Notes: a model not told the origin generated them from the sequence alone. A stretch of 64,000 nucleotides of DNA from Nitrospirota bacterium (GCA_029858565.1 JAOUEV010000008.1:13969-77968), one strand, 5' to 3'. Numbered from the stretch's first letter, positions 640 through 19,046 are shown. Made by a program: numbers and translations.

Positions 640-653
640 TATAACTGCGCGTT

Positions 654-712
654 TAGTTTTCCATTTTTTTGCACTCAGTTTGCCATTTTATAACCCAGAA
701 AGCTCATTTTTT
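654..712 (+). repeat. Tandem putative transposase-binding sites at the left end of the element
   Basis: TAGTTTTCCATTTT (654), CAGTTTGCCATTTT (676) and a degenerate third unit; the CATTTT core is at 662, 684 and 705 (21-22 bp period). Confidence 0.65.
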
Positions 713-756
713 GTATGCTTAACGCCATATGACAAGTGCTTTATTCAAACTGTAGA

Positions 757-990: not shown

Positions 991-1045
991 TTGTGATCCT
1001 CCTGGGAACAGCCGACTTGTCACGGTCAATAACGTGAATTAATAA

Positions 1046-3058
1046 TTATTGTCCGATTCCGAATGCACTTCTAACCGCTGGGCTTGTGTTTGCGAGTTTC
1101 AGTAATACGGTGGCAATATATCGCTCACCATCGAACTGATGCTTGCCCACCTGCGCGTCCAGCTGAACGCCGGACTGGTTAATAACGCTTATCGAAACGT
1201 TTGGCATGTTGCCTACGTCGCCCTTGTTGATTCTGTCGAGGGCGGCCACGCCCTTGCGCGACACCACGTATTCACCGGTCTGCAGGATAGCGGGACGCTC
1301 GTCGGACGATAGCCCTCCCACATGGAACCGGGGGATATATCCTCCGCTGTGCATGATCAGCCCGCCGGAATGTTTAAAATAAGGTCCAATAACCGGCGGT
1401 TGCCCGTACCCGGATCCTCCTACATTTGCACCTGGATCACTTATAAGTGCGCCGCCGACAGCGGTTGTTCCCGTTTTATTTTCGGCATTTTTAATACCTG
1501 TAATAGCAATCACAGATTGCTGCGCAAGAATATTTGAAATCGCGCGCGCCACGGAAAGCAAGAAACTTTTAATATATTGCCAGAAGCTCTTAAGTTTACC
1601 CGTCATTGCGTCAAAGAAAAATTCAGAGAACGCCTGTTCCATGCCGCGCGCGGTTTCCTGGGCGATATACACGCCTTCCTGGAAGCGGCTTCGAAGGCTG
1701 TCATTATACCGCTTTAAACCTTCGTCAATACCCTCTTGAAACGTGCCGTCCAACTCCCGCAGCGCCAACCTCAGGTCGGAGATTTTTCTGATGGTGTCAT
1801 CGATCTCTTTTTGCTTCGCGGCCCGCTGGTTAGGATCGTTGATCGGCTTCAGGTTCGCCTGCTGCACGCTGAGCAGCCGTTCCTCGATCCGTAGCCGCTC
1901 GCGGGCCGCATCAAGATGGGAAATATCGCGGTTTTTCTCTGCTATATCGAGGTAGGCCATCTCGCGCATGATCTCCGCTTCTCGCGCTTTCATGGCAACT
2001 TCATATTCCAATTGGGATTGTGCTCCCGTACCCCTGCCGCCTCCTGATCCGCTGAACGATGGATCGGTGCCGGTTCCGCCGCCGGAGAGCGGAGATTCCG
2101 CTTTTCCGAAGGCCGCCTTGAAGTACGTTGCGCTCAGGTTCTTCAGCTTCTCGAAGTCCGCCTTGGTCTTGGCCAGCGTCTCGTCGGAAACGATGCCGAC
2201 CTTGTTCAAGGCCGTCTGCGCCAGGGTAGCCAGACCCATGATGCCGGCGATGCCTCCGCTCATGAGCCCCATGACAATATCCACGGTCCCGAGCGCGAAA
2301 CTCTTGATGCCGCTGCCGAAGCTCCAGATCGCGCTGCCGACGGTTTCCTTCAGATCGTTCCACCAGGCCTTGAGCTTCTGCATCTTTTCGGCGTTGTTGC
2401 CCTGGACATCGCCGAACTTTTCCATCTGCTTGCCCGCGTTCTCCATGGCCAGGGCATAGAGGTCCACATCGGTGATGCCCATGGACATGGCCTCGGACAG
2501 GAGCTGCACCTGTTCCTTGGAAACAAGACCGTACTTCAGCAGCGCCCGCGGCATCTTGTTTGCGATCGCGTCAGTGATCGTCTCGTATGCCGTGCCCACG
2601 TCCTCGCCCGTGACTCGCGCGGAGATCCTCGCGGCCTCCATGATCTTCGTGAGCTGGTCGCCGTTGAGCCCCTGCATCATGCCCTTCACGGCCTTCTGCA
2701 TGATGTCCGAGTCGTCCACGGTCCCGGCGGCCGCGCGCTTCATGTTTTCCAGGATCTCGTCCGCGCTCTCTCCGGACGCCTCGGCCACCTGGCGGAAAGA
2801 CGCCTCGGCCTGCTCGGCCTTGGCTCCCAGCTCCATGTACTCCAGCGCCTTGCTGATCGCGACGCCTGCGGCGGCAGCCGCGGCGGTGATGGCGATCCAG
2901 TTCTCTTTCATGGACTTCATAAAGGAGCCGGTCTGCTTGTCGGCCTTCCCGGTCTCGTCGCCGATGCCCTTGATCTGCTTCCCCAACTGGTCAAGGGTCC
3001 CCTTGGCCATGTTGTAGGCTTCGATGACGAGCTGTATTTTCTGGCGGTCGTTCGACAT
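1046..3058 (-). CDS. Phage tail tape-measure-like protein (670 aa)
   Basis: Ala/Gly-rich helical protein with an N-terminal IQLVIEA motif, a lambda-TMP-C-like segment (MEQAFSEFFFDAMTGKLKSF) and C-terminal FHxGG...DERPAILQTGEYVV; AAGGAG RBS. Confidence 0.8.
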   Translation of the reverse strand: MSNDRQKIQLVIEAYNMAKGTLDQLGKQIKGIGDETGKADKQTGSFMKSMKENWIAITAAAAAAGVAISKALEYMELGAKAEQAEASFRQVAEASGESADEILENMKRAAAGTVDDSDIMQKAVKGMMQGLNGDQLTKIMEAARISARVTGEDVGTAYETITDAIANKMPRALLKYGLVSKEQVQLLSEAMSMGITDVDLYALAMENAGKQMEKFGDVQGNNAEKMQKLKAWWNDLKETVGSAIWSFGSGIKSFALGTVDIVMGLMSGGIAGIMGLATLAQTALNKVGIVSDETLAKTKADFEKLKNLSATYFKAAFGKAESPLSGGGTGTDPSFSGSGGGRGTGAQSQLEYEVAMKAREAEIMREMAYLDIAEKNRDISHLDAARERLRIEERLLSVQQANLKPINDPNQRAAKQKEIDDTIRKISDLRLALRELDGTFQEGIDEGLKRYNDSLRSRFQEGVYIAQETARGMEQAFSEFFFDAMTGKLKSFWQYIKSFLLSVARAISNILAQQSVIAITGIKNAENKTGTTAVGGALISDPGANVGGSGYGQPPVIGPYFKHSGGLIMHSGGYIPRFHVGGLSSDERPAILQTGEYVVSRKGVAALDRINKGDVGNMPNVSISVINQSGVQLDAQVGKHQFDGERYIATVLLKLANTSPAVRSAFGIGQ

Positions 3059-3091
3059 GGGTGTACTCCTTTCAGATAGTTCTACGTATAA

Positions 3092-3532
3092 TTAAACTCG
3101 CGAAGATGATCTGCTTTTCTGAAGGGTATATTTGAGCACGCTGTGTTGATCATCTTCGTTCATTTCTATCAAAATCTGTCTCACTTTTTCAATTAACGCT
3201 GTACCTCGAAGCATGCCTGGCATAGCTGATGGAGTCTCTATATTGTTTCGTACAAAGACATTATAGATGCCTGTCGGAGTCATTCCGTATTTTTTTGAAA
3301 GCTTCTGCAGTGTAAATTTGTTGGTATGATAATCCGCAATGATTTTGTTATCGCGTTCCTTCCTGCGCACGACAGTCAGGCACTCCAGCGTTTTCGGGAA
3401 ATACACCTGTTCACCACGGAGCTCTGATCCAAGCTTCACCGTTGCACCGAGGCCGATGATTTTAGCGATCATCTGGTATGTTGGGTGAAGCTCGTTCTCC
3501 CGGATGCTAATTTGCTTTTCATCCATCAGCAC
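3092..3532 (-). CDS. Mor/C-family transcription activator
   Basis: IAKIIGLGATVKLGSELRGEQVYFPK...RDNKIIADY...LSKKYGMT...IYNV matches the Mu Mor family pattern. Confidence 0.8.
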   Translation of the reverse strand: MLMDEKQISIRENELHPTYQMIAKIIGLGATVKLGSELRGEQVYFPKTLECLTVVRRKERDNKIIADYHTNKFTLQKLSKKYGMTPTGIYNVFVRNNIETPSAMPGMLRGTALIEKVRQILIEMNEDDQHSVLKYTLQKSRSSSRV

Positions 3533-3550
3533 TTTACCTCCACAGTTACT

Positions 3551-4336
3551 TTAGACCGCGCAGTATTCGACACAGACGGTTTCCCGATTTTCGGTTATCA
3601 ATGTAGGCTCTCCCATGAGCTCCCACCGCAGTTTTCTAAGGGCAGTAGCTTCAATTCGGGCGACACTGCTTATTGAAAGCCCAGCTTTTACACCAACTTC
3701 TTCCGGCATAAGATCACACCAGTATCTAAGAATTATTATCTTACGTTCCCTGTCGTTAAGCTCCAGCAACGCTCTGCGAATATTATGGTTGAATGCCGAT
3801 TTCTCAGCACTGCACTTGGTTTCAGCAGTTCTGAATGAATTCCCATTTCTTCGCTTATCGAATATTTGCGGTATTATTGAACTATCCCCATCCGAAACGA
3901 ACATGTCTTGCCGAGTAGCCGCGTCTTCTTTGTCGCCCAGAAGCTCATCTAACGAATTATGTTTGTTCTTATGGTAATCTTTGAGGCAGTCAATTATCTG
4001 ACGGCTAATTGCTGGTTTCGCATAGGCAATAAGCCGGATCCCTCTTTCTGGATCGAACAGTTTAGCTGCTCTCATTAAACCCTGGCAACCTTCGGCAACC
4101 ATGTCCATAAATGGCAATCCTGGGCGCCAATACTTCCTGACGATGAAAATAACGAACTTGATATTTGACTCTACGAGAAGTTCAGCTGCCGCTTCATCTC
4201 CGGATTGAGCCCTGCGAGCGATCCTGCTTTCATCCTCTCGTGATAATACTGGTCTTTGTTTAAGGTCTTCCCGAAGCATCCTGAGTAATTCCCAGTCTCC
4301 ACCGCCATAACCGGAATTCTGTTTTTCCTCTTTCAT
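3551..4336 (-). CDS. Sigma-70 family RNA polymerase sigma factor (regions 1.2, 2 and 4)
   Basis: LSREDE..IARRAQSGDEAAAELLVESNIKFV; DMVAEGCQGLMRAAKLFDPERGIRLIAYA; LNDRERKIIILRY...EEVG...VARIEATALRKLR; start at 4336 after GGAGG. Confidence 0.85.
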   Translation of the reverse strand: MKEEKQNSGYGGGDWELLRMLREDLKQRPVLSREDESRIARRAQSGDEAAAELLVESNIKFVIFIVRKYWRPGLPFMDMVAEGCQGLMRAAKLFDPERGIRLIAYAKPAISRQIIDCLKDYHKNKHNSLDELLGDKEDAATRQDMFVSDGDSSIIPQIFDKRRNGNSFRTAETKCSAEKSAFNHNIRRALLELNDRERKIIILRYWCDLMPEEVGVKAGLSISSVARIEATALRKLRWELMGEPTLITENRETVCVEYCAV

Positions 4337-4384
4337 GCGACCTCCCCGAGTGGTAATATCAACCAAGGAAGGATATCCCGCTCC

Positions 4385-4423
4385 AAAAGCCACGCCCTCC
4401 TGCCCAGGACGCGCGTGGCTTTT
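4385..4423. terminator. Stem-loop, putative terminator
   Basis: AAAAGCCACGC...GCGTGGCTTTT inverted repeat. Confidence 0.5.
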
Positions 4424-4707
4424 TATTTTGTCGCTGCTACGGGGATCTCTTTAAGTCCGTACGATGTTTCACGAATCAATGTTTCCAGTTCCTCGCATTT
4501 GGCGTGGGTTGCTTTTTGCAACCGACCAAGAATCGAAAATACCATTGACCATTCAATATCGATTTTGCGTCCTTCCCCGGAAGACAATGCAGTTATTTCT
4601 CCGAGCTTGATCATCGTTTCTATTTCATATAAGTGGTTTGTAATATCATTGCGCAGATGATCGAGTTTAACGTATGCGTTCTCTTTCTGTTTTGAAAGCT
4701 GATTCAT
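4423..4707 (-). CDS. Hypothetical protein
   Basis: 94-aa ORF with AAGGGGGG RBS, co-directional with the operon. Confidence 0.6.
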   Translation of the reverse strand: MNQLSKQKENAYVKLDHLRNDITNHLYEIETMIKLGEITALSSGEGRKIDIEWSMVFSILGRLQKATHAKCEELETLIRETSYGLKEIPVAATK

Positions 4708-4729
4708 TGAAGCCCCCCTTGGTTAAGTT

Positions 4730-4761
4730 ATAGCCACGCTTCCACCTGACAGCGTGGCTAT
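4730..4761. terminator. Stem-loop related to 4385-4423
   Basis: ATAGCCACGCT...AGCGTGGCTAT. Confidence 0.5.
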
Positions 4762-4787
4762 TGATTTTATTATTTGCTGAACTCGTT

Positions 4788-5909
4788 CTACAGGTTGATC
4801 CCGATTGTTTGATACTTTGCTTTTATATCGTCAACGGCTTTCTGGATCACAGCTCTGTCCTTGTACGGTCCAGAGAGAGAGCACACTGCTGCTATTTGAC
4901 CATAGTTATGCTTATCCTCTAAACCTTCAAATGCTTTGAGGTTGAAGGTCGGTATTGCAAACCTGTCAGCATCGCCCCCCGTCCGCCGAATCGCAAAACC
5001 TTCAGCCCTGACTTCCTTCGACAGTCGAGCTGGAGAACCCATGATCTCATCCAAGGCCGTCAGCTCTTTGAACTTGTCGATGAGTTGAATAGAAAGCTTG
5101 ATGTATTCCTGACCGACAAGTTCGGCCTGGCCCATCAAAAACTCGTTGATGATTTCCTTCCGGCTGGACCGGAGCAGAGTCAGCTCATTCTCGGCTGCAT
5201 CGAGTTTTCGCTGGAGGCCCGCGATGATTTGCTTCGCGTTGCCGGCAACCTTGTTGAATTCTTCAAGCGCTGCTTCCCGCGCCGCAATCTGCTCATCAAG
5301 CGCTTTGAGGTCTTTTCCCGTCGCAGTGCCCAGAGAGATGGCTGCAAGGATATCTTCTCTCTCTTGCAGCAGATCGTCTGCGGACTCGGGCACGGCCTGA
5401 CGGGCCTTCTCGATCGTGCTTGTCTGATCCGAAATGAGAGCCTGAAGTTCTGCGACGGTTCTTTCTGCCGCTGCAACATCCTCTTGATACTGAATAAGAT
5501 CCTCGATGCCGAGTGAATGACCATAATTCGTCAGTTCTTTTTCGGCGTTCACGAGATCCTGATGTGTGCTCTGCGCGTGCTGCCGGGCATGTGCGGCCAC
5601 TTCTTTGGCATCCGCAGCAGCCTTCTGAAGTTTGTCGAATTCATCTTTTTCCCAAGGGGTCATGCGCTCTACATCTTCTGCGTGGTGCCTCCCATTAAGG
5701 CGATTCACGCCTTCAATGGTGCTTTTAAATGAGTAGACCTGTCCTGTCGCCCGTGCTGCAATGTCCTCTTTGTCGTCGGCGACCTTGATAGCAGCAAGAC
5801 ATTTTTCTCTGAGCAACTGCGCACGACGACGAAGGTCTTCTCTCTTTGCCACCCGTTCCCTGTACGACACCTTCCCTGGGGCATCCTGTACGTCCGCTTT
5901 CTTAGCCAT
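4788..5909 (-). CDS. Coiled-coil hypothetical protein (373 aa)
   Basis: Long A/E/K/L-rich heptad-like sequence; GGAGG RBS. Confidence 0.75.
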   Translation of the reverse strand: MAKKADVQDAPGKVSYRERVAKREDLRRRAQLLREKCLAAIKVADDKEDIAARATGQVYSFKSTIEGVNRLNGRHHAEDVERMTPWEKDEFDKLQKAAADAKEVAAHARQHAQSTHQDLVNAEKELTNYGHSLGIEDLIQYQEDVAAAERTVAELQALISDQTSTIEKARQAVPESADDLLQEREDILAAISLGTATGKDLKALDEQIAAREAALEEFNKVAGNAKQIIAGLQRKLDAAENELTLLRSSRKEIINEFLMGQAELVGQEYIKLSIQLIDKFKELTALDEIMGSPARLSKEVRAEGFAIRRTGGDADRFAIPTFNLKAFEGLEDKHNYGQIAAVCSLSGPYKDRAVIQKAVDDIKAKYQTIGINL

Positions 5910-6002
5910 GTGCTTTCCTCCTATCGTTAATTTGATGGTTCGTAAATTCTCACGAATGCTTTAGTGAGGGATTTCCTCGATGTCATCCGTGGAGTTATTT
6001 AT

Positions 6003-6275
6003 TTATCGCTTCGGCGATACCGATGCGATGTTTCGTACAATTTCATCAAGTTCGCTCTGTTCTTCTTTCGACACTTGTGCAGCAAATTCATTGGTATGTT
6101 CGCCTTCTGACAGATCAATAAAAAACACAGAGCCAGGGGACATGGGGACAAAGCGACATCCCGATATCTGGCGAAGTTTTTGTTGAAATTTATGATCGTC
6201 TATGCGTATCATATTTTCTCCACGAGGCTGCTGATTATTCCCTAACGAGTTTTCTATCGAGCCTTTAGAGGGCAA
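6003..6275 (-). CDS. Hypothetical protein (start may be the internal MIRIDD)
   Basis: ORF co-directional with its neighbours; GGAGA precedes the internal ATG. Confidence 0.5.
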   Translation of the reverse strand: MPSKGSIENSLGNNQQPRGENMIRIDDHKFQQKLRQISGCRFVPMSPGSVFFIDLSEGEHTNEFAAQVSKEEQSELDEIVRNIASVSPKR

Positions 6276-6675
6276 ATATATGTTTTGCCGCTCTCGTCAG
6301 TGCCAAAAGACGATCCCCAACAGTCGTATCCCTACCGAACAGGATGAGATCGCGACGTTTGTCCTCCGGCACCATTTTCGAAGCACCTATTTTCCGAGCT
6401 TCCGAGTAGTAGAGCCGATGGCACGAACCGGATCCAAAACCACAGAAATCCTTCTGCCTCCCGGAAAGAGGCTTTCCACAGCGGCGGCAATGCCTCCCAT
6501 TTGCCGCTTTATTAGCTGTGCGCAGCTCGCTGGGGGCCTCAGGGGGAGCAATATGGGGCATGGGGCTACCCTGGCACCCAAAACGCACATTTTCCTCCGT
6601 CGTATTCACCCCAGCACTGTCTAAACGTTGCATTCCATGTTCCTCTCTACCTATCCGTCTGTAGCCCATCAACAA
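6265..6675 (-). CDS. Small putative zinc-finger protein
   Basis: CRRCGKPLSGRQKDFC...CH motif typical of phage Zn-ribbon proteins; start uncertain. Confidence 0.5.
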   Translation of the reverse strand: MLMGYRRIGREEHGMQRLDSAGVNTTEENVRFGCQGSPMPHIAPPEAPSELRTANKAANGRHCRRCGKPLSGRQKDFCGFGSGSCHRLYYSEARKIGASKMVPEDKRRDLILFGRDTTVGDRLLALTRAAKHIFAL

Positions 6676-6682
6676 CAGCCGT

Positions 6683-7204
6683 TTAAACGGTATTCGAAAC
6701 CGGCTTACCCGTGTCCGGCGCGTCCGGTTTTCTTTCGCGTGCGCCGTCCTTTTTCCGCCTGACCATATTGTTCAATGTATGGATCACCTTCCGGGTTGTG
6801 ACCGTATCCAGGAACCGAAGGTCTGAAACCTTGAAATGCCGATCTAAAAACGTGCGCAGGGCCTTTTCTCTTTTTTTATGATCCCTGATATCAACAGCAT
6901 CACGCCAAAGGGCTTCGATCTTTCGGAGTTGAGAAGGCTGCGCCATATCTGCCCGATGACCAAGATTTTCAAACCGTTCTTTGCCCTCGAACTTATTCCA
7001 CACGCCGCGCTCGATCGCGCTGTCTTCGAGTGCCGTAATGAGCGAGTTGGCTTGTTCGGATGTAAGCTGTTTTGAAGATGCCGCTTCAAAATTGATTGCG
7101 AGGGTACCCCGATACTCTTTTTCCGTCATCTTGAGGGCTGTTTTCAGCGTGTGAATTTTTTTGATCTGCCCTACGTCAATCATCTTATTTGCCGTGTTCA
7201 ACAT
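6683..7204 (-). CDS. Mu GemA/gp16-like protein (DUF1018)
   Basis: QIKKIHTLKTALKM..EYR..L.....SSKQLT..QA..LI; QLRKIEALW; ALRTFL.R; typical of transposable phages. Confidence 0.8.
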   Translation of the reverse strand: MLNTANKMIDVGQIKKIHTLKTALKMTEKEYRGTLAINFEAASSKQLTSEQANSLITALEDSAIERGVWNKFEGKERFENLGHRADMAQPSQLRKIEALWRDAVDIRDHKKREKALRTFLDRHFKVSDLRFLDTVTTRKVIHTLNNMVRRKKDGARERKPDAPDTGKPVSNTV

Positions 7205-7574
7205 TGCCTGCTCCTTTCTCGTTCTTCTGAAACCAGTAACCTACTGTTCTGGGACATAGTCCAAGTCGCTTCGCTATTTTTTCGGCCGAAATCTTCGACT
7301 TTGTTCTGAGCCGCAATGCCAGCCGGTATGCATTAAGGTGAGGGGCAAGAACTCTAACAGTGTCTCCAGATGGTGTTTCCTGGAGCCAGTAACGAACTGT
7401 TCTTGGATTCATACCGATGCGTCGCGCTATTTCAATTCCTGTTAACGCTTCACATTTCCTCAATCGCAAGGCTTCGAGATATTTGCTCTGGTGAGATAAA
7501 TGAGCACGTATGTTACGCAGCCTGTCCTTTCTCATGCGATCAGTCCTCTTCAGAGAAAAAATATCCCGAGCCAC
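7185..7574 (-). CDS. Small protein with two tandem HTH motifs, in the position normally held by MuB
   Basis: EIARRIGMNPRTVRYW and KIAKRLGLCPRTVGYW; overlaps the transposase stop codon. Confidence 0.7.
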   Translation of the reverse strand: MARDIFSLKRTDRMRKDRLRNIRAHLSHQSKYLEALRLRKCEALTGIEIARRIGMNPRTVRYWLQETPSGDTVRVLAPHLNAYRLALRLRTKSKISAEKIAKRLGLCPRTVGYWFQKNEKGAGNVEHGK

Positions 7575-10146
7575 GCTTAGTTAATACATAGCGTTCCGCT
7601 CCGACCTTTCGGAGTTTGATTCGCAGTCTTGTTACGTGAACATCTATTGCCCGCAGCTCCATGGATAGGCCGTTTCGTGAGATGGCTTCCTTGATCGCGG
7701 CTCGTCCAAAAACTTTGCCTCGGTTTTCCATGAGAAGGCGAAGGAGTCTGAACTCCATGGGGAGGAGATCAACAATCTTGCCTTCAGCCACAACTCGCTC
7801 ACGGTCCAGATCCATTAGTAGCGGGCCGGCGCTGACTATTGATTTTTCAATAGCCGCGTTATATTCTTTCTTTTTCTCCAGGTAATCGGCCATGTCTCTT
7901 TGATATTGTGCTTCCGCATCTGCTTCATCACTCTCAAAAATGATAAGCGGTTTTTCCGGCCGAATCGGTCGTGAATCCTCCAGATATGAAATTTCCTGTA
8001 AAGTACTGTAGCCATCGGTGCCGGTTAGCTGCATCTCGCGATCACGTCGAACGACTTCATCCATGGCAGTTTTTGCGAGACGAAGCACTTTGACTTTTTT
8101 CTTGTCGGTTGTCGTGCAACCGCGAGCAAGATTCACTGCTACTATTCCTGCGGCAAGATGTTCTACGGTTTCAGATGGCGCAACGGCTCGATTGTCCTTC
8201 AAATATGATTTCGCGATTTTCCTTGTGCGGTGTTTATGGGCCAATGCTGCCTTGAGTTCCGCTCTTTCTATGTCCGTTTTAGCGAGCGCCTGGACTGCTC
8301 CCACCAAGTTGGCTTTCCCCAGGTACTCATCCGTTGTGGCATCAAAGACCCAAGCAGTCTGGTAGGCTTGCACATCCCGGCGTAAATAGACTTTGGTCCC
8401 TGTGAGGGCATACATGAATTCGCCAAAGTAAGTGACCTGGAGTTCACTATCTCGCACGCCATTTCTGCCGATCGTGACTTCCTTACTGGTTCTCTGACAA
8501 AATAGTTTTAATGCATCGGCTCCGACCTTTCGCATCTCCGATCGTTCAGCATTCCATACTTCATCCGGACATCTGCCCTGGAGCACCTTTCCATTTGACG
8601 GCATTTTATTAGCGACGGTCATGATATAGACATCCATCAACTTTAGATATTCGTCGTAGGAGAGAATGCGGCCGCTTTTAATTTCTCCGTCAAGGCTATC
8701 CGGTCTTTCGGTGACATTGCCGCCACGGTAGCCTGGCATGTGTTTGCTGAACCATTCCTTGTTGCGCAGAAAATCTCGTTCAATCGGTTTGGTCTGAGCA
8801 TTGTATGGTAGTGCAAAATGAGGAGTGACGCCGAGAAGCGAAAGCATACTGGTCGTTTTCTTCTCGTCAACCGTCACCCGGCCGCGCTTCCGGCCTCCGG
8901 CAAAATCGCGCGATTTATAATCACGGCCATTGTCGATATAAAGCTCTTCCGGCAATCCGTTTTCTTTTACTGTGTAATAGAAGGATTGAAATATATGGTC
9001 GCTATTCGGCGGCTCAGGATGATGCAGCCAGCCAAGCCACTTGGAAGTTTTATAATCGCGCCATGCCGTGATCCATGGAAAACATGCCTTGCCGTTCGGC
9101 AGCATTACCGCGACATCGACTTGAGCGTGATCCCCTACAATGACTTGGCCGGGTTTTATCTGGCTGTAATCACGGTCCACATGCGATGCATATTTTCTAT
9201 TCCAGGCCTCCGGACCAAAGCGAGCCAAAAAGATTGAGCTTTTCGGTATTTCACGCTCGACGCGGCGAAGAAATGCGGACGGTGAGGGGAATCCTTCAAG
9301 TTGAAGCTGCGGATTGAGAGTCCGTGCATATCCGAGGGTACGAGTCCAACACGATTTAACGGAGGGCGCGCCTTCCTTCAGATATGCATTTTTGAAGTAC
9401 TTATAATGGTCATCCTGCACTTTGCTGTTTCCGGCAGAATGACCGTATTTTGCGAGCAGTCCGGCAATGCCTTGCTCAGCATATTTATTTCGTGCATCGA
9501 GAACCGCGTCATAGGATGTTTTCAGGTCAGGCTGAGTGCCGTTCCACTCAGCTACAAATTGCCTGAGGCTTGCACCCTTGAGTCCAGCAGAGGCGCGAAT
9601 GATTTGAAGATATTTATCAGCCTTCTGCCGAGCCCAGCCTGGCGCTGCCGCGTAGAGTTCACTCTCTATCTCTTCGTCGGTCATGGGCCGCAGCGCTGTG
9701 CCGATGTTTACGACTTCGCCTGTTGCGGTGTCGATTAACTCGCCGCTTGCGATTTCTATATTCTTATTGGCATTCTCTGCGGTGATTGATAAAGAGTGCG
9801 CCGGTACAGAAGCAGATGGCACCTGACAAGGAGGAGGCTGCATCTGTACCGGCGCGAGTTGATCAGGGGTGCGGTCGCGAACCCGCTCCTGATCTATAGA
9901 AGATGCAACAGATGACCACAAAGGAGGTTTGTTTTCGCCATCTGTCACATCCATGCTGCCAGGTTGTAAGAAGAGTGCCTTGATGTCTTCGGCAAGACCA
10001 TCAGTCTCAAATTCTTCGGCAACCTTATGGTTAACGATTCTGGTACCGCACGACTGCCAACCTTCCTTTAGCTTGCGCTTTCGGATGGCATGCCAGGTGA
10101 CGCCTTTTCGTTCGGCTATTTCTTTCAGTGTCGCCTTCATGCTCAT
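7540..10146 (-). CDS. MuA-type DDE transposase with a C-terminal fused OmpR/PhoB-type winged-helix DNA-binding domain (868 aa)
   Basis: N-terminal HTH; catalytic VGDH, YIDNGRDY and PIERDF; Mu-transposase C-like region; last about 100 aa LLPMEFRLLRLLMENRGKVFGR...RAIDVHVTRLRIKL...TKRGSGY matches the Trans_reg_C pattern. Confidence 0.9.
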   Translation of the reverse strand: MSMKATLKEIAERKGVTWHAIRKRKLKEGWQSCGTRIVNHKVAEEFETDGLAEDIKALFLQPGSMDVTDGENKPPLWSSVASSIDQERVRDRTPDQLAPVQMQPPPCQVPSASVPAHSLSITAENANKNIEIASGELIDTATGEVVNIGTALRPMTDEEIESELYAAAPGWARQKADKYLQIIRASAGLKGASLRQFVAEWNGTQPDLKTSYDAVLDARNKYAEQGIAGLLAKYGHSAGNSKVQDDHYKYFKNAYLKEGAPSVKSCWTRTLGYARTLNPQLQLEGFPSPSAFLRRVEREIPKSSIFLARFGPEAWNRKYASHVDRDYSQIKPGQVIVGDHAQVDVAVMLPNGKACFPWITAWRDYKTSKWLGWLHHPEPPNSDHIFQSFYYTVKENGLPEELYIDNGRDYKSRDFAGGRKRGRVTVDEKKTTSMLSLLGVTPHFALPYNAQTKPIERDFLRNKEWFSKHMPGYRGGNVTERPDSLDGEIKSGRILSYDEYLKLMDVYIMTVANKMPSNGKVLQGRCPDEVWNAERSEMRKVGADALKLFCQRTSKEVTIGRNGVRDSELQVTYFGEFMYALTGTKVYLRRDVQAYQTAWVFDATTDEYLGKANLVGAVQALAKTDIERAELKAALAHKHRTRKIAKSYLKDNRAVAPSETVEHLAAGIVAVNLARGCTTTDKKKVKVLRLAKTAMDEVVRRDREMQLTGTDGYSTLQEISYLEDSRPIRPEKPLIIFESDEADAEAQYQRDMADYLEKKKEYNAAIEKSIVSAGPLLMDLDRERVVAEGKIVDLLPMEFRLLRLLMENRGKVFGRAAIKEAISRNGLSMELRAIDVHVTRLRIKLRKVGAERYVLTKRGSGYFFSEED

Positions 10147-10211
10147 CCTGTGTTTTAATAGTCGTTGCGTACTCGCTCAAAATACGATACAATCGTGTTC
10201 ATTGCGGGCAA

Positions 10212-10460
10212 CTATGCCTTCTGTTGATTGCCATCAGGCCACAGCTCGGAGATCCTCATCCGAAGTGCGGCCGCAATGGAGCGGCGTATTCGCTGCCCGC
10301 GCCTGCGCCCGTGAATAACAAAGGACACATATGCTTTTGTGACATGTTCTCTTTCTGCGATTTGGAGGCCAGTAACTCCCCTTAACACCATTATTGATTT
10401 TATGTTCCTCGCCCCCAGGACGCCGGAACGTGTGCTTTTTTTAAGTAGCTTTTTCGACAT
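10212..10460 (-). CDS. Ner-like HTH transcriptional regulator
   Basis: IKSIMVLRGVTGLQIAE...IRRSIAAALRMRISELWP; lies between the repressor and transposase as in Mu. Confidence 0.7.
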   Translation of the reverse strand: MSKKLLKKSTRSGVLGARNIKSIMVLRGVTGLQIAEREHVTKAYVSFVIHGRRRGQRIRRSIAAALRMRISELWPDGNQQKA

Positions 10461-10596
10461 GTGTTTTTCCACCCTTGCTCCGTATGAATCGCTCCTGATG
10501 GCAATGTAGTAGTTAACCGATATACTATGGAATCTAACAACAAGCGGCTTGGGGTAAGCCACATTGTGTTAACCTGTATATCATGTTGTAGGTATG

Positions 10597-10625
10597 AATA
10601 TAGTCACAAAATATGACAATGTCAA
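10597..10625 (-). promoter_or_regulatory. Sigma-70 promoter for the ner-transposase operon, with a palindromic operator in the spacer
   Basis: Minus strand TTGACA-17 bp-TATATT; GTCA-N7-TGAC palindrome at 10603-10617; overlaps the repressor start. Confidence 0.6.
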
Positions 10626-11077
10626 CAACAAAATTCATATTAACTGACATTATTAAACGCATCAAACAGCGCGAATTAATCCGCAGTGACGTTAAGGTCG
10701 CTGAATTACTAGGATTAGAGCGCACTGCATTTGCTGAGAGAAAGCGCAGGAATAGTATTCCGTACAAAGAATTAGTCATATATTGTGAACGAACCGGAAC
10801 CAATATGCATTATCTTCTTACCGGAGAAGGTTTGGATATTAATGCTGCGCTTAGAACAGTTCCGTTAGAACTGCGAAATAAACAGCTGTACTACATTGGA
10901 AGATGGGTGGATGTGTTTTGGGAAAAAGCCACAGAAGAAGAGCGGGCATGGCTTTATGTGGAACTCCAAAGGGTATTCCCTGAATTTAAAAAATGGATAC
11001 AGGAAGAAGAGGCAGAACTTGAAAGGTCTTTCAATGAATTTTCGAACACTGAAAAACCGGAAGGTGGCGATCAATGA
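10613..11077 (+). CDS. Phage CI-like repressor (Phage_CI_repr-type HTH)
   Basis: DVKVAELLGLERTAFAERKRRNSIPY...NMHYLLTGEG; divergent from ner. Confidence 0.8.
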   Translation: MTMSTTKFILTDIIKRIKQRELIRSDVKVAELLGLERTAFAERKRRNSIPYKELVIYCERTGTNMHYLLTGEGLDINAALRTVPLELRNKQLYYIGRWVDVFWEKATEEERAWLYVELQRVFPEFKKWIQEEEAELERSFNEFSNTEKPEGGDQ

Positions 11078-11700
11078 AGATAGTGATCTTCTGCATCATC
11101 ACGACAATGTTTTTTTCGGGATGCGCGTCGAAGAGAACTTTCACTCAAGATGAATGGACCAGGATCACCACTCGGGAATATAGTGGTAGGTCAGCCACGG
11201 AAGTTTTTGATGCAATCGAAAAGGTTCTTCGCCTTGCCGATGAATCTGATGTGAAAATATACCGGTGGCCGGATCGCCTTATAGCAACGAGGTCATATCT
11301 TATCTACGCTGTGCTCGCAGCAACGAACGGACTATATACATTCGACATTCATACAGTGCCAGGAGAATCAGGCACAAAAGTCGTTGCTATTATTACGCTC
11401 ACCGCAGGAACAATAGCAGGAGCGCCGACAGCCTACAATCCAACGATTATCACGACCCCTTCAGCGGGCGGCATGGTTATGGATAATCCGGAAACCTATG
11501 ATCTGTTCTTCTCCCGAGTAAAGTATTTCCTCAACGGGGGAGTCTGGGTAACCTGTGAGCGTGCCACAGAAATGTACCGAGATAGCCCATCCGGTGCACT
11601 CGATGGTTTATGTTTAATGAGTGATGATGACCTTCCGGAAGAAATGCGGCAGTCTACCGAAGGAAACAACTCCTGGCGATCTCGCCGCGCGCGTCGTTGA
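11074..11700 (+). CDS. Lipoprotein of unknown function (element cargo)
   Basis: Signal peptide with lipobox FSGC; ATGA overlap with the repressor stop. Confidence 0.75.
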   Translation: MKIVIFCIITTMFFSGCASKRTFTQDEWTRITTREYSGRSATEVFDAIEKVLRLADESDVKIYRWPDRLIATRSYLIYAVLAATNGLYTFDIHTVPGESGTKVVAIITLTAGTIAGAPTAYNPTIITTPSAGGMVMDNPETYDLFFSRVKYFLNGGVWVTCERATEMYRDSPSGALDGLCLMSDDDLPEEMRQSTEGNNSWRSRRARR

Positions 11701-11726
11701 TGTTTTAGTATTTAAAGGAGACATTC

Positions 11727-12041
11727 ATGGAACTGACAAAGCCAAGAGCGCAGGAGAAAAAGGTAAGAGATAAGATCATCGCAGCGCTACGAGAATATAG
11801 ACCACAGGATGACATAGCTTTCTCAAAATTCACAAACGATAGAATCCCTGATGAGTTCTACCATAAAGAAATAACGAAAGCAGGGATTGAACAGGGATTA
11901 GAGTGTCTTCGTCTAATCAATAATATGAGCGGTCTCTCAGCAGGAGACTTTGATCTGCTCACGCTTTTGGAACACTACATTTTAAATCTTGATTCCCGCG
12001 ATGCAATAAACAAGGTTCTCAATGCAAGGCGTGGACGCTGA
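11727..12041 (+). CDS. Hypothetical protein
   Basis: 104-aa ORF with AAGGAG RBS. Confidence 0.65.
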   Translation: MELTKPRAQEKKVRDKIIAALREYRPQDDIAFSKFTNDRIPDEFYHKEITKAGIEQGLECLRLINNMSGLSAGDFDLLTLLEHYILNLDSRDAINKVLNARRGR

Positions 12042-12148
12042 TTCTTTTTGGAACTGTGTACCTGGATCCCGACTGCTCATTACGCTTACATTCAGTGATG
12101 ATCGTAGCGCCGCCTGCTCTCCCAGCCGATACCGTCCATATTCCTTGC

Positions 12149-12201
12149 AGGTTACATAGGTCACATAGGTTACAATGGGGCTATGTAACCAGTTACAAAG
12201 G
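12149..12201. repeat. Cluster of GGTTACA/TGTAACC motifs inside the right end of the element
   Basis: AGGTTACAT-AGGTCACAT-AGGTTACAA (9-bp period), inverted ATGTAACC at 12183, and GTTACAAAGG (12192-12201) inverted relative to CCTTTGTAAC (12416-12425). Confidence 0.7.
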
Positions 12202-12341
12202 TGAGTGCCGGAACAAGCGCGCTTAAATATTAAAAAGCCTTGCGTTAAACGATATTTAAACGGTCATCAAAATTTATCGCGCGATTTGAGAAAGTTGAAG
12301 ACTGCCCGCGCAATAATGTAAAAAACGTGTACTTCCGGAAA

Positions 12342-12356
12342 AAAATGGCAAACTGA
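12342..12356 (-). repeat. Inverted copy of the left-end transposase-binding motif
   Basis: AAAATGGCAAACTGA is the exact reverse complement of 675-689. Confidence 0.75.
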
Positions 12357-12479
12357 TCCCGCCGCGTTTTTTTCTCGATTCCATCCTTAATATCAATACG
12401 TTATAAGCACACCTCCCTTTGTAACCAATAAAGAGAATTACCTGAAAAAGCATAGTAGAGGGCAGAAAATTTATCGTTG

Positions 12480-12499
12480 TTGTAATCTTCCTGTAACAT
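12480..12499 (+). promoter_or_regulatory. Pho-box-like direct repeat upstream of pstS
   Basis: TGTAAT-N5-TGTAAC (11-bp period, 12481 and 12492), followed by TATAAC near 12508 as a possible -10; standard position for PhoB sites. Confidence 0.7.
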
Positions 12500-12549
12500 T
12501 CAGCGGTTATAACATTTCCATGATAAACTCATCAAGGAGGCATATACAT

Positions 12550-13557
12550 ATGAAGCATCTGTTGATCGCGATTGCGATTCTTTCGGCCTTAACCCTTTCC
12601 CCGGCAGCCCACGCCATCGAGACCCTGAACGGCGCTGGAGCCACGTTCCCCTATCCGGTCTACTCGGCCTGGGCCTATGACTACAGCAAGGTGGCGGGTA
12701 TTCAGCTCAACTACCAGTCGATCGGTTCCGGCGGGGGTATCAAGCAGATCTCGGAGCGTACCGTGCATTTCGGCGCGTCCGACAAGCCGCTTACCCCCGA
12801 GGAACTTAAAAAGGACAACCTGCTCCAGTTCCCCGCGGTCATCGGCGGCGTGGTCCTGGTCGTGAACGTTCCGGGGGTGAAGTCCGGAGACCTGAAGCTT
12901 GATGGTTCCGCGACCTGCGGCATCTTCCTTGGGGAGATCAAGACCTGGAACGATCCCAGGATCAAGACCCTGAACCCGGGGCTCGGCCTGCCTGACTCGG
13001 CCATCACCGTGGTGCGCCGGTCCGACGGCTCCGGAACCACCTCCATATTCACCGACTATCTCACCAACGCCTGCCCGGCATGGAAAGCAAAGGTCGGCAG
13101 CGGCACCTCGGTCAACTGGCCCATAGGCATCGGCGGCAAAGGCAATGAAGGCGTGGCGAACTACGTGAAACGTTCGGCCAACTCCATCGGCTATGTGGAG
13201 TTCGCTTATGCAAAGCAGAACAAGATGGTCCACACCAAGCTCAAGAACAAGGCCGGCTCGTTCGTTGAGCCGAACTTCGAGAGCTTCGAGGACGCGGCAA
13301 AGACCGGAGACTTTGATCCGAAAAAGGATTTTTTCCTCTGGCTCACCAACGCGCCGGGAAAGAACGCCTGGCCCATTGCCGGTGCGACCTTCATCCTGCT
13401 GGCCGGCGACAAGAAGGACGTGAACACCCGGGTTGTCAAGTTCTTTGACTGGGCATTCCAGAACGGCGATGCCAAGGCAAAGGAGCTGGTCTATGTGCCT
13501 CTGCCCAAGACGCTCAAGGACAAGGTGCGGCAGTACTGGAAAATAAAGGGAATATAG
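12550..13557 (+). CDS. pstS: Phosphate ABC transporter substrate-binding protein
   Basis: GAGATFPYP, NYQSIGSGGG, RRSDGSGT, IGYVE; AAGGAGG RBS. Confidence 0.97.
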   Translation: MKHLLIAIAILSALTLSPAAHAIETLNGAGATFPYPVYSAWAYDYSKVAGIQLNYQSIGSGGGIKQISERTVHFGASDKPLTPEELKKDNLLQFPAVIGGVVLVVNVPGVKSGDLKLDGSATCGIFLGEIKTWNDPRIKTLNPGLGLPDSAITVVRRSDGSGTTSIFTDYLTNACPAWKAKVGSGTSVNWPIGIGGKGNEGVANYVKRSANSIGYVEFAYAKQNKMVHTKLKNKAGSFVEPNFESFEDAAKTGDFDPKKDFFLWLTNAPGKNAWPIAGATFILLAGDKKDVNTRVVKFFDWAFQNGDAKAKELVYVPLPKTLKDKVRQYWKIKGI

Positions 13558-17399: not shown

Positions 17400-19046
17400 A
17401 TGCGCCTGCGCGACCTCCTCATTCTGACACTTTTCCTCGCACTGTTCTTCGGGATCCTCCTCGGCAGCCGCCCCCTTTCTGTGCCCGACGAAGGACGGTA
17501 TGTCGAGATCCCCCGCGAAATGGTCGTGAGCCACGACTGGCTCACCCCGCGCCTGAACAGCGTAAAGTATTTTGAGAAGCCCCCGCTCTTCTACTGGATC
17601 GAGGCAATGCTGATCAGGCTGTTCGGCCTTTCCGAATGGTCGGTCCGCCTGGGGCCCGCGCTGCTCGCGCTCTTCGGATGTCTGGCGGTCTTCTTCGCCG
17701 GGAGCCGCATGTTCGGCCGGCTGACAGGCATATTTTCCGCGATCATTCTCGCCACAAGCATGCTCTATTTCGCCTTGAGCAGGCTCATCACCCTGGACAT
17801 GCCGGTCTCGGTGCTCCTGACCGCTGCATTGCTGTCCTTCCTGGCCGCCACCCGCGAACCGGCCGGCAGGACAAGGGTGCTTTTCTTCCGGGGCTTCTAC
17901 GCTTTTGCGGGACTGGCGGTCCTTACCAAGGGGCTTATCGGCATCGTATTCCCGGGCATGATCATCTTCTCCTGGATGCTCGTCACGGGAGAATGGCGCT
18001 TGCTCAGGTCAATGCATCTCTTGTCGGGATCGGTCATATTTTTCGCCATCGCCGCCCCCTGGCATATCCTCGTGGGCCGTGCCAATCCGGAGTTCTTCGA
18101 TTTCTACTTCGTTCGCGAGCATTTCCAGCGCTATCTCACCAAGGTCCATCACCACTACAAACCCTTCTGGTTCTTCATCCCCGTGGTCCTGGGAGGCCTT
18201 TTTCCCTGGTCGGCCTTCCTGGTCCAGGCTGTCCGCGACGCACTCCCGGCGACATGGAAGGACCGCCGTCAGCACAAGGAAACGCTCTTCCTTCTGCTCT
18301 GGGCAGCGCTGATCTTCCTGTTCTTCTCCGCGTCAAGTTCCAAGCTCATCCCCTATATCCTGCCCGTGCTGCCGCCCCTGGCGCTGCTTATCGGGAAATA
18401 CCTGGCAGATGCTGTCGAGCGCGGTCGCACGGGACTTCGTGCGGGCTTCAATGCATTCCTGGTCATGAGCGCCCTGATCGCGGTCGTGCTCGGAGCGCTT
18501 CCGTTCCGGCGGCCCGATGTGGCGCCGTCGGAGATCGCGCCCTATCTCATGATAATGATCGCCGTACTTGCGTCCGGCGCCTTCGGCGCGTGGTATCTTT
18601 GGAAAAACCGCCGTCTGCTCCCTGCTTTGGCGGCAACAGCGGCAACAGCTGTTCTCTTCATGACAACTGTTTCCGCGGCCGTGCCCCAGGTGAACGCCAA
18701 GAGCAACAAGTCCCTGGCACTGGAGATCAGAAAGCGGCTCGGCCCGGACGACGAGATCGTCCACTACCGCAACTACTACCAGGACCTTCCGGTCTATCTG
18801 GAGCGGCGCATGACCATTGTGGACTGGCGCGGAGAGCTGGACTTCGGCATGGCCATCGAGAACACAAGCGGCTGGATGATAGACGAGGCAGAGCTCTGGA
18901 AGCGGTGGCAGGGCCCGCGCAGGATATTCCTTGCTGCCGGGACCAGGGATGCCGATGCGATCAGGCAGATACCGGGAAAACTTTTTTTTCTGATTGCGCA
19001 GAACAAAAATACCGTTATACTATCCAATAAAGAGGACCAGCAATGA
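17400..19046 (+). CDS. arnT: 4-amino-4-deoxy-L-arabinose transferase (GT83)
   Basis: PDEGRYVEIPREM, YFEKPPLFYW, LTKG, SKLIPYILP; arn context. Confidence 0.88.
   Translation: MRLRDLLILTLFLALFFGILLGSRPLSVPDEGRYVEIPREMVVSHDWLTPRLNSVKYFEKPPLFYWIEAMLIRLFGLSEWSVRLGPALLALFGCLAVFFAGSRMFGRLTGIFSAIILATSMLYFALSRLITLDMPVSVLLTAALLSFLAATREPAGRTRVLFFRGFYAFAGLAVLTKGLIGIVFPGMIIFSWMLVTGEWRLLRSMHLLSGSVIFFAIAAPWHILVGRANPEFFDFYFVREHFQRYLTKVHHHYKPFWFFIPVVLGGLFPWSAFLVQAVRDALPATWKDRRQHKETLFLLLWAALIFLFFSASSSKLIPYILPVLPPLALLIGKYLADAVERGRTGLRAGFNAFLVMSALIAVVLGALPFRRPDVAPSEIAPYLMIMIAVLASGAFGAWYLWKNRRLLPALAATAATAVLFMTTVSAAVPQVNAKSNKSLALEIRKRLGPDDEIVHYRNYYQDLPVYLERRMTIVDWRGELDFGMAIENTSGWMIDEAELWKRWQGPRRIFLAAGTRDADAIRQIPGKLFFLIAQNKNTVILSNKEDQQ

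Follow-up and report, generated by a model that had tools for sequence, protein, structure and literature searches.

Bacteriophage Mu has a genome of about 37 kb, termini of TG...CA and near-random insertion, and the C-terminal region of its transposase contacts MuB. At attTn7 (TnsD with TnsABC), Tn7 relies for target selection on a distinct protein working through the AAA+ adaptor TnsC, and insertion takes one orientation. CRISPR-associated transposons use RNA-guided effectors together with TnsC and TniQ. Fusions of DNA-binding domains to transposases include IS30-repressor, zinc-finger and Gal4 constructs, and integrases are tethered in Ty elements and retroviruses. We analyzed a 64,000-nucleotide stretch of Nitrospirota DNA (the window) in which a Mu-type element lies beside pstS. 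On balance, we favor the view that this is a MuB-less Mu-type element in which a fused PhoB-type domain guides insertion at the pstS Pho box.

The element spans 11,815 bp (positions 640 to 12454), with termini 5'-TATAAC...GCATA-3' assigned by homology to the ends of two related elements, one in a sister species (G001) and one designated L025. Identical copies of GTAGA flank it at 635 to 639, just outside the terminus common to G001 and L025, and at 12455 to 12459, confirming the 5-bp duplications by which the ends were to be mapped; the corresponding duplications are GGCGC in G001 and AAATC in L025. Host genes resume past both ends, and the GC content of the element is 0.39 to 0.53, versus 0.57 for the genome. 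The distal end (640 to 700, plus strand) carries two direct copies of AGTTTKCCATTTT, presumed transposase end-binding sites that are kept in G001 and L025, with CAGTTTGCCATTTT at 676; an inverted copy of CAGTTTGCCATTTT lies at the repressor-proximal end (12342 to 12356, minus strand). The AGTTTKCCATTTT repeats are thus present at both ends in inverted orientation, as are the end-binding sites of Mu. The repressor-proximal terminus (12418 to 12454) reads inward GGTAAT-N11-GTTACA; G001 has TGTAAT-N11-GTTACA there, and L025 has neither.

The genes follow the repressor, ner, A, gemA, mor order of Mu. A CI-type repressor gene (10613 to 11077, plus strand; Pfam Phage_CI_repr, E 8.6e-9), 70% identical to its counterpart in the G001 element, diverges from an operon of a Ner-like small repressor (10212 to 10562, minus strand; phrog_1468 transcriptional repressor, E 5e-9) and the transposase. 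Directly 3' of the transposase lies a gene for a 129-aa double-HTH protein (7185 to 7574, minus strand; Pfam HTH_23), followed by a GemA homologue (6683 to 7204, minus strand; Pfam GemA, E 1e-18; 56% identical to the L025 homologue). A sigma-70-like factor gene (3551 to 4393, minus strand; Pfam Sigma70_r2 and Sigma70_r4) and a Mor-family activator gene (3092 to 3532, minus strand; Pfam Mor, E 2.4e-9) lie further along. Toward the distal end, the final large gene (1046 to 3058, minus strand) encodes a 670-aa protein with a weak Tape_meas_lam_C match (Pfam, E 4.5e-5) and no PHROG, PDB or PADLOC match; it is 57% identical to the gene at the equivalent place in the G001 element. Apart from that weak match, no structural phage family was found by Pfam or PHROG in the element ORFs scanned. 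The element was therefore rejected as a prophage or Mu-like phage: it is an 11.8-kb transposon-like unit without the head, tail and lysis genes of Mu, and portal and terminase genes are likewise absent from the ORFs scanned. It differs from Mu also in its termini, which are 5'-TAT...ATA-3' in the window, G001 and L025 elements and so do not meet the 5'-TG...CA-3' criterion.

The transposase ORF (7540 to 10146, minus strand) encodes 868 aa, comprising a MuA-type DDE transposase and a C-terminal OmpR/PhoB winged-helix domain. Its MuA-like part (residues 1 to 766; 7849 to 10146, minus strand) contains an N-terminal HTH, I-gamma, the DDE core, Mu-transpos_C and an acidic linker. Pfam assigned HTH_Tnp_Mu_2 to residues 238 to 321, DDE_2 to 334 to 516 (55.6 bits; cut-off, 23), Mu-transpos_C to 552 to 609 and Trans_reg_C to 791 to 864. 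The Mu-specific flanking domains, end-binding I-gamma (PF09039, 33.1 bits; cut-off, 20.5) and Mu-transpos_C (PF09299, 22.8 bits; cut-off, 21.7), are both present. Catalytic residues D339, D405 and E456 align to NGDGY, IDNTR and KPVER of the solved Mu transposase 4FCY and are invariant in an alignment of all seven fused family members, and TnsB structures are weak PDB matches (E 2.8e-4). By these matches, the protein is assigned to the MuA/TnsB superfamily, and its core, flanking domains and 5-bp duplication are shared with Mu.

The winged-helix domain (residues 767 to 868; 7543 to 7848, minus strand) is fused in frame. Its Trans_reg_C match (E 6.7e-17; 61.8 bits; cut-off, 26.2) covers profile positions 3 to 77 of 77, including the recognition helix and wing. 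The top NCBIfam model is TIGR02154, PhoB (positions 128 to 226, 68.8 bits), and the three top PDB matches are E. coli PhoB DNA-binding domains (1GXP, 1QQI and 3T72), with 1GXP aligning end to end. Both the intact DDE triad and the OmpR/PhoB effector pattern of the last 100 or so residues, as read in the initial annotation, are supported by these comparisons. The domain is PhoB-like and not a PhoB orthologue, being the effector half only and scoring far below the TIGR02154 cut-off of 296.2 bits. It is 44 to 51% identical to pstS-adjacent response regulators of four other genomes (G009, G012, G002 and G007) and of contig C2 of the window genome (G000), and PhoB is the best-scoring assignment for 8 of the 10 response-regulator representatives nearest to it. 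The kinship to PhoB that a phylogeny was to establish stands at the level of NCBIfam and PDB matches; descent from within the host pstS-linked PhoB group is not borne out, as the tree does not put the fused domains in that group. The recognition helix is also altered (RAIDVHVTRLR, versus RTVDVHIRRLR in host PhoB-like proteins). Unlike PhoB/OmpR response regulators, whose fold it shares and whose target it probably shares as well (an 11-bp-period direct repeat at the -35 position of pstS), the domain sits on a recombinase and lacks a receiver, and therefore lacks phosphorylation control.

A further difference from Mu is the absence from the element of MuB or any other P-loop gene. No Pfam AAA family was found among the element ORFs scanned, no Walker-A motif occurs in open frames of at least 40 aa in all six frames of 640 to 12454, and tblastn of the MuB-like protein of L025 against the entire genome gave no match (E ≤ 0.01), bearing out the claim that no MuB/TnsC AAA+ gene is present. 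The L025 transposase is the closest unfused relative (720 aa, 59% identity); its alignment stops at residue 748 of the window transposase and the protein itself ends at about residue 754, where the fused domain starts. In L025, the transposase is followed by an AAA_22 (MuB-like AAA+) gene, an HTH gene and GemA; in the window, the transposase with its winged helix is followed directly by HTH and GemA, and the double-HTH protein is 38% identical to the product of L025:12713-13015, which follows MuB. Judged by these gene orders, the PhoB-type domain occupies the MuB-gene slot, and the MuB gene has been lost from exactly there. The initial annotation had proposed that the domain replaced the MuB module. 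This holds for the gene, whose slot the domain takes; replacement of the C-terminal part of the transposase was rejected, as the domain is added to a full-length MuA-like protein. The alignment with L025 indicates that the region corresponding to the MuB-contacting part of Mu is retained, so that MuB independence rests only on the absence of the gene.

Downstream of the element, the direct repeat TGTAAT-N5-TGTAAC (TGTAATcttccTGTAAC; 12481 to 12497, plus strand) takes the -35 position of the promoter of pstS (12550 to 13557, plus strand; NCBIfam PstS, 401.9 bits; cut-off, 339), which is followed by pstC, pstA, pstB and phoU (Pfam; up to 17324). The 3.9-Mb genome has a single exact match to TGTAAY-N5-TGTAAY, the one at this promoter. 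Among pstS promoters of the bacterial family, 9 of 12 have the exact box and 3 of 12 have it with one or two mismatches; in all 12, a TATAAC-like -10 hexamer follows it at a distance of 10 nt (spacing by eye); in the window this hexamer is at 12508 to 12513. The region 11900 to 12620 yielded no sigma-70 -35/-10 pair. By the rules for Pho boxes of E. coli and B. subtilis, the site qualifies: at least two direct repeats with an 11-bp period that substitute for the -35 element, at 10 nt from the -10 hexamer and upstream of pstS. On this evidence, TGTAAT-N5-TGTAAC is the box that the pstS promoters of the family have in common; in one genome (G003), it additionally precedes another PstS-family gene.

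The coordinates given in the initial annotation for the end of the duplication (12459) and the start of the box (12481) are correct and leave a 21-bp gap (12460 to 12480). In the sister species, a related element, flanked by a separate duplication (GGCGC), also lies at pstS, and its gap is likewise 21 bp. Each of the two genomes (3.5 to 3.9 Mb) has one exact box, which is occupied in each. The two insertions are independent and have opposite orientations, and the G001 locus (porin-pstS) is syntenic with the empty C2 locus of G000, not with the occupied one. By eye, the two 21-bp spacers agree at just 7 of 21 positions. The insertion site of the MuB-bearing L025 element has no such box. Since the second element occupies a pstS locus that is not orthologous to the first, in opposite orientation and at the same offset, site-specific targeting is well supported, with only two insertions, and the predicted recurrence at a fixed distance from the pstS box was met. 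The G001 transposase ends at a contig end at about residue 404, leaving its winged helix unseen; over residues 150 to 404, it groups with the fused clade (support, 92/88).

In the reading we favor, the gene for the MuB target-delivery ATPase has been replaced by a PhoB-type winged helix at the C terminus of a MuA-like transposase that is otherwise complete, joined by an acidic/helical linker of about 55 residues. In the mechanism we propose, the receiver-less winged helix would bind TGTAAY-N5-TGTAAY, the Pho box standing in for the -35 element of pstS promoters, and the bound domain would hold the transpososome for strand transfer, with a 5-bp stagger, 21 to 26 bp upstream of the box. Insertion would be possible in either orientation, and the pstS promoter would stay intact, making the site safe and unique in the genome. 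As at attTn7, a sequence-specific module would set a short fixed distance at a harmless place by a conserved gene; in contrast to Tn7, selector and transposase are a single polypeptide, the ATPase is absent and both orientations are seen. CRISPR-associated transposons likewise have a transposase of the MuA/TnsB superfamily and insert at a set distance from a recognized sequence; here, however, a fused protein domain would read DNA directly. A Tn7-like or CRISPR-associated targeted transposon was rejected, as there is no TnsC-type AAA+ protein or Walker-A motif, and no Pfam or PHROG match to the TniQ/TnsD and TnsC families in the ORFs of the element. Engineered fusions and tethered integrases also bias integration nearby through a DNA- or chromatin-binding module on a DDE enzyme, but they are laboratory constructs or eukaryotic protein-to-protein tethers.

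It is possible, though unlikely, that the winged helix instead serves the element itself, as an end- or enhancer-binding module or a regulator at TGTAAC sites near the repressor-proximal end, much as domain I-alpha of MuA engages the Mu enhancer. Choice of the pstS site would in that case fall to something else, such as host PhoB-bent DNA, a hairpin or another element protein. A cluster of TGTAAC/GTTACA hexamers whose binder is unidentified lies inside the element (12140 to 12210; hexamers at 12151, 12169, 12184 and 12192), and five such hexamers fall in its last 320 bp, whereas the genome as a whole averages 0.098 per kb. The cluster is kept in G001, as is a (T/G)GTAAT-N11-GTTACA pair 14 to 36 bp from the terminus, and both are absent from L025, L040, L041 and L051. 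Their restriction to the two elements of the fused lineage means that the domain may bind the element's own DNA, instead or additionally, and suggests, from motif content, a second or alternative (end-binding or regulatory) role. Both duplications (GTAGA and GGCGC), moreover, are located in a GC-rich hairpin, within its 3' arm, as read from the DNA, which leaves room for a structural cue. However, the internal sites are 9-bp spaced or palindromic, whereas OmpR/PhoB proteins typically use direct repeats of 11 bp, and no element site reaches 10 bits with the box matrix, versus 24.7 for the occupied site (the matrix includes the window's own box). The repressor type common to G000 and G001 is missing from the other elements, so that the repressor could equally own the TGTAAC sites. 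A domain recognizing these sites should recognize the box too, and service to the element alone leaves an identical 21-bp offset at two unrelated loci unexplained.

Considerably more doubtful is that host PhoB on the box acts as a beacon for the transposase, which would dock on it by head-to-tail contacts of the fused domain or of some other part of the protein; targeting would then be protein to protein and coupled to phosphate starvation. The fused domain shares homology with the DNA-binding domain found in pstS-linked regulators, PhoB DNA-binding domains reportedly contact each other on DNA in the 1GXP work, and G001 has a third half-site, TGTAAA, one 11-bp step upstream of the box, a possible place for an extra protomer. 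The equivalent slot in G000 (12470 to 12480) has no half-site, however, there are no interaction data, and the conserved recognition helix is more simply read as direct DNA binding. That random Mu-like insertions merely persisted upstream of pstS because they were harmless or useful, with an unrelated role for the domain, is hardly credible: there are only two sites, and any transposon is expected to leave intergenic survivors, but selection should give a spread of positions and not a base-exact 21-bp offset beside the sole exact box in each genome, with differing duplications, opposite orientations and non-orthologous loci, and by our arithmetic the chance of two such hits is about 2e-6 even if each genome is granted 100 acceptable boxes and a margin of 50 bp.

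We therefore return to direct tethering by the fused domain. That integration is held beside Pho boxes, as the initial annotation had proposed, gains from the recurrence at 21 bp and the PhoB-like domain; that the domain binds the box and acts as a tether without an ATPase remains an inference, without binding or transposition data, and is weakened by the count of two insertions, the unassembled C terminus in the sister species and the internal TGTAAC clusters. We found no published precedent for such a system. It would be a natural bacterial DDE transposase with an acquired host transcription-factor domain, and the evidence points to a naturally occurring system in which a single protein directs DNA insertion to a specific site.

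The fusion itself recurs. In a length-restricted search with the C-terminal part (614 candidates), all seven matches have the architecture PF09039+PF02914+PF00486; six further proteins share the architecture of the window transposase, and the seven are 65 to 74% identical overall. In a search of 1.84 billion representatives, P0003 alone of the best 150 matched the whole query, and P0061 is a fragment with Mu-transpos_C and Trans_reg_C. Two proteins, P0157 and P0158, carry the same domain on a different Mu-type core, only about 30% identical to that of the window, and the fused domains of both core lineages form one clade (support, 86/91). Judged from these proteins, the fusion is not an assembly artifact, and a combination unique to this assembly, which would have refuted the proposal, is likewise ruled out by the further fused proteins, on this core and on the second. 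In unfused relatives with the second core (L040, L041 and G066), an ORF of 295 to 299 aa, unassigned to any family, lies directly 3' of the transposase, in the position of the MuB-like gene of L025.

The element is bounded by host genes, with pstS, pstC, pstA, pstB and phoU on its right and, on its left, an alpha-amylase gene and an ORF for a small membrane protein. Comparison with two related elements placed its ends at window positions 640 and 12454, giving a length of 11,815 bp. One of these relatives is found in G001, another species of the genus, where it is split over two contigs (L014 and L026); the other, L025, lies in an uncultured Thermodesulfovibrio MAG and is the nearest relative whose transposase is unfused. 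All three elements start with 5'-TATAAC on the distal side and end with ...ATA-3' on the repressor side (window 640-645 and 12450-12454; L014:17694 and L026:7804; L025:6186 and 16711), and each has its own 5-bp duplication, GTAGA in the window, GGCGC in G001 and AAATC in L025. The initial annotation had placed the end of the target duplication at 12459 and the start of a Pho-box-like repeat ahead of pstS at 12481, and both coordinates proved exact.

A CI-type repressor gene and two unknown genes lie on the plus strand of the element. Its minus strand encodes a Ner-like protein, the transposase, a double-HTH protein, GemA, unknown proteins, a sigma-70-like factor, Mor and a 670-aa protein. Genes for heads, tails or lysis were not found in its 11,815 bp. 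The sibling L025 element is likewise short (10,526 bp; L025:6186-16711), and both carry Mu early and middle genes without virion genes; the sigma-70-like factor, Mor and the 670-aa protein are extra in the window element. Searches gave no identification of the 670-aa protein beyond a weak tape-measure match. A full Mu prophage was rejected because structural genes are lacking, and the elements may be transposons or phage satellites.

The repeat was compared across the regions upstream of pstS at 12 loci of the bacterial family, excluding one truncated locus and one duplicate. The motif TGTAAY-N5-TGTAAY, at 12481-12497 in the window, was exact in 9 of the 12 promoters and carried one or two mismatches in the other 3, which supports the description of the repeat as Pho-box-like, in the absence of binding data. 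In all 12 a TATAAC-like hexamer follows the proximal half-site at a spacing of 10 nt, as read by eye, and no sigma-70-type -35/-10 pair was found in window 11900-12620. E. coli Pho boxes are arranged in this way, and the box, when reverse-complemented, resembles the B. subtilis PhoP repeat. Exact boxes number one each in the window's genome (G000), G001 and G002, two in G003 and G009, and three in G012, while a reversed control pattern occurs 0-1 times per genome; in G003, the box also stands ahead of a PstS-family gene of another type. Scored with a matrix derived from the 12 boxes, the occupied site ranked first in G000 (24.7 bits; next, 20.1); this ranking is in part circular, since the window's box contributed to the matrix. 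Two pstS paralogues are present in G000, along with two PhoB-like regulators (C2:1-7300, locus L037; C126:3261-5914, locus L001), one regulator being pstS-linked, with a hybrid-type kinase and a porin, and the other paired with a PnpS/PhoR-like kinase. The promoter of the second pstS, on contig C2, has three half-sites and is unoccupied.

In G001, the distal end of the element adjoins pstS (element from L014:17694, GGCGC at 17689-17693), and the repressor end lies beside a porin gene and a hairpin (from L026:7804, with GCGCC just before it). Read on the pstS strand, the box at L014:17651-17667 is separated from the duplication by 21 bp, as in the window, and the element is inverted relative to pstS with respect to the window. 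Insertion beside the pstS box, which the initial annotation had seen at a single site, therefore recurs at a fixed distance, 21 bp in both G000 and G001 (two sites only). Two related elements at the same distance could descend from one event, or one region could have been transferred whole. Both possibilities are excluded because the far flanks are unrelated, the 21-bp spacers agree by eye at 7 of 21 positions, and the G001 locus, porin-pstS, is closer to the C2 copy of G000: its porin is 58% identical to that beside the unoccupied C2 pstS, and its PstS shares 79.8% identity with the C2 copy and 74.8% with the window's. As far as the sequences can be compared, the box is the only feature common to both sites, apart from a hairpin read by eye at each. 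The occupied box is the sole exact box in both genomes, and the MuB-bearing L025 element occupies an intergenic site without such a box. That insertion is targeted site-specifically to the box region, whatever the means, we consider highly probable.

The G001 transposase is cut at about residue 404 by the contig end, so that the winged helix is not covered. Its residues 150-404 share 68-78% identity with those of seven fused proteins and 62% with L025, and it groups with the fused clade (support, 92/88). G002, G003, G009 and G012 yielded no unoccupied orthologue of either locus. Logan contigs of the probable source run contained no joint across 640-12454 and are interrupted at 640-669. Two runs of another study hold contigs that resemble the left flank and continue into unlike sequence right after 639, and one of these runs also contains transposase-gene fragments with about 5-9% differing letters; the evidence for both observations is thin. 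Runs X2 and X3 yielded only 5-6% of the sampled words, in short pieces, and no habitat or strain conclusion is therefore drawn from them.

The transposase is encoded by the minus-strand ORF 7540-10146, which specifies an 868-aa protein with a Mu I-gamma domain, the Mu DDE_2 core, Mu-transpos_C and Trans_reg_C in Pfam, the last at residues 791-864 (E 6.7e-17). Its body was also assigned as transposase by PHROGs (phrog_310, E 3.5e-80). D339, D405 and E456 align with the catalytic motifs of the solved Mu transposase 4FCY and are invariant in the family alignment, confirming that the DDE triad is intact, as first read. For the fused domain, the best NCBIfam model was PhoB (TIGR02154, 68.8 bits, effector half only), and the top three PDB matches were DNA-binding domains of E. 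coli PhoB, among them 1GXP, a complex with DNA. PhoB was also the best-scoring model for 8 of the 10 closest response-regulator representatives. Within the family genomes, the best matches of the fused domain were regulators of about 240 aa adjoining pstS in G009, G012 and contig C2 of G000, and also in G002 and G007 (44-51% identity); the recognition helix reads RAIDVHVTRLR in the fused domain and RTVDVHIRRLR in the host proteins. The C2 regulator and the second G000 regulator, paired with the PhoR/PnpS-like kinase, both score best as PhoB. Descent of the fused domain from the host pstS-linked PhoB group was not shown by a tree of 28 DNA-binding domains (100 columns), from which the database representative P0005 was omitted because of its truncated C-terminus.

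The absence of a MuB-type AAA+ gene was borne out: no Pfam AAA family matched in the element, no Walker-A motif was present in its open frames of at least 40 aa in six frames, and the MuB-like protein of the sibling L025 found no match in the G000 genome. The L025 transposase (720 aa, 59% identical; alignment stops at residue 748 of the window transposase) is followed by a 295-aa AAA_22 protein, an HTH homologue (38%) and GemA (56%), whereas in the window the order is transposase with winged helix, HTH protein and GemA. By these gene orders, the segment coding for the winged helix sits exactly at the sibling's MuB position. The initial annotation had the domain replacing the MuB module, and this holds for the gene slot but not for the protein; judged from the alignment, the transposase is complete in itself and the winged-helix domain is an addition to it.

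Recurrence of the fusion was searched among long proteins only, scored on residues 740-868. Seven proteins were found among 614 candidates, one of them the window's own; all seven combine PF09039, PF02914 and PF00486, and their overall identity is 65-74%. When residues 560-868 were searched exhaustively with HMMER against 1.84 billion representatives, P0003 alone among the best 150 matches listed matched across both parts of the query. No transposase domain was present in any of the multi-stretch matches checked, P0097, P0036, P0114 and P0135, which have only Trans_reg_C repeats (P0097, P0114 and P0135) or a weak receiver match in addition (P0036). P0061 is a fragment with Mu-transpos_C and Trans_reg_C, and in its full-length relatives, P0157 (829 aa) and P0158 (898 aa), the domain is joined to a core only about 30% identical to the window's; 13 of the 15 matches in the search that yielded them lack the fused domain. 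In unfused relatives of this second core (two IMG/VR contigs and genome G066), an uncharacterised ORF of 295-299 aa directly follows the transposase. Mis-assembly as the source of the fusion, a doubt voiced at the outset, was rejected because the fusion recurs, both in the six other long-protein matches and on the second core, and it is thus not unique to this assembly.

The domains of both core lineages form one clade in the domain tree (support, 86/91), and on this tree the module seems to go back to a single capture, followed by transfer between cores. Its presence on two distant Mu-type cores suggests that it may be a portable targeting module. The N-terminal 110 or so residues (HTH region; window 9817-10146) are also far closer to P0157 and P0158 than the roughly 30% identical cores, with 64% identity between P0158 and the window transposase over residues 1-109, which suggests possible module shuffling between Mu-type transposases. 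A family-alignment search returned no relatives in viral or metagenome contigs, and in genome contigs only L025, G001 and one unrelated response regulator. A scan for the element end motifs was negative in metagenome and viral contigs, and P0157 and P0158 as queries in viral contigs found unfused relatives only. Whole-genome protein searches of 64 family/class genomes and a 401-genome phylum sample placed the fused type in G000 and G001 only.

We propose a mechanism that, as a whole, we hold to be reasonably likely. The receiver-less winged helix would bind the box, and the roughly 55-residue linker (about 712-766) would allow DNA some two helical turns upstream to be captured by the tetrameric transpososome. 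Strand transfer with a 5-bp stagger would come next. Both orientations would occur because the tether leaves open which end faces the box, and insertion would be harmless because the promoter stays intact. We lean, if only slightly, toward reading the system as natural ATPase-free, single-polypeptide, site-specific DDE integration, in which the transposase, with a PhoB-type domain captured instead of MuB, reads the box and inserts 21 bp off in either orientation.

In the Mu/Tn7/CAST superfamily, target choice is thought to go via an AAA+ adaptor, MuB or TnsC. The TnsD pathway of Tn7 is alike in outcome, but the window system is without TnsC/TniQ-type parts. The window transposase resembles that of Mu in domains, catalytic residues and duplication length, whereas the element differs from Mu in having no MuB, no structural genes and no TG/CA termini; Mu itself ends in TG...CA. 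Targeted DDE transposition is itself known, and the fused OmpR/PhoB domain with the absent ATPase would be a variation on it. Literature listings and the opening parts of abstracts gave no described fusion of a Mu-type transposase (MuA) with an OmpR/PhoB domain and no ATPase-free site-specific Mu-type insertion, in keeping with the first impression that no system of this kind had been described. If the proposal is true, an adaptor-free lineage reading DNA by a transposase-fused domain would be a second, simpler evolutionary solution, and would clearly exemplify how a mobile element can take over the DNA-binding domain of a host regulator to find a safe, unique landing site. It would also offer a compact natural template for programmable insertion, with one protein, two ends and an exchangeable winged helix.

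TGTAAC/GTTACA hexamers, whose core is that of the Pho-box half-site, are enriched inside the element at its repressor end (window 12140-12210 and 12418-12442; L026:7833 and 8058-8110). They form a cluster (12151-12192) and, 14-36 bp from the terminus, a pair. Cluster and pair are conserved in G001 and absent from the unfused relatives L025, L040, L041 and L051. The internal spacing is 9 bp or palindromic, and none of the sites scores as a box. A canonical Pho box inside the element was rejected (best matrix score there, 9.9 bits), as was TGTAAC as the c/ner operator, no such motif being present in 10500-10660. Because spacing and score are unlike those of the box, and because the repressor type is common to G000 and G001, the binder of these sites could be the transposase winged helix, host PhoB or the repressor. 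The same hexamer may let the fused domain also bridge end and target.

Before insertion, both target sites were GC-rich hairpins by eye, with the duplication in the 3' arm in both. The arms are CTGCCCTCT/AGAGGGCAG in the window (619-639 and 12455-12468) and GGCGCTCC/GGAGCGCC in G001 (L014:17686-17693 and the L026 flank). In the host flank, 110 bp to the left of the insertion point, window 412-530 holds about 11 tandem 11-bp units (G/A)CGACAG-N4, and three such units in register occur nowhere else in the G000 genome. The reverse complement of the unit, CTGTCGC-N4, resembles the E. coli Pho-box unit, and the array may be for another OmpR-type regulator.
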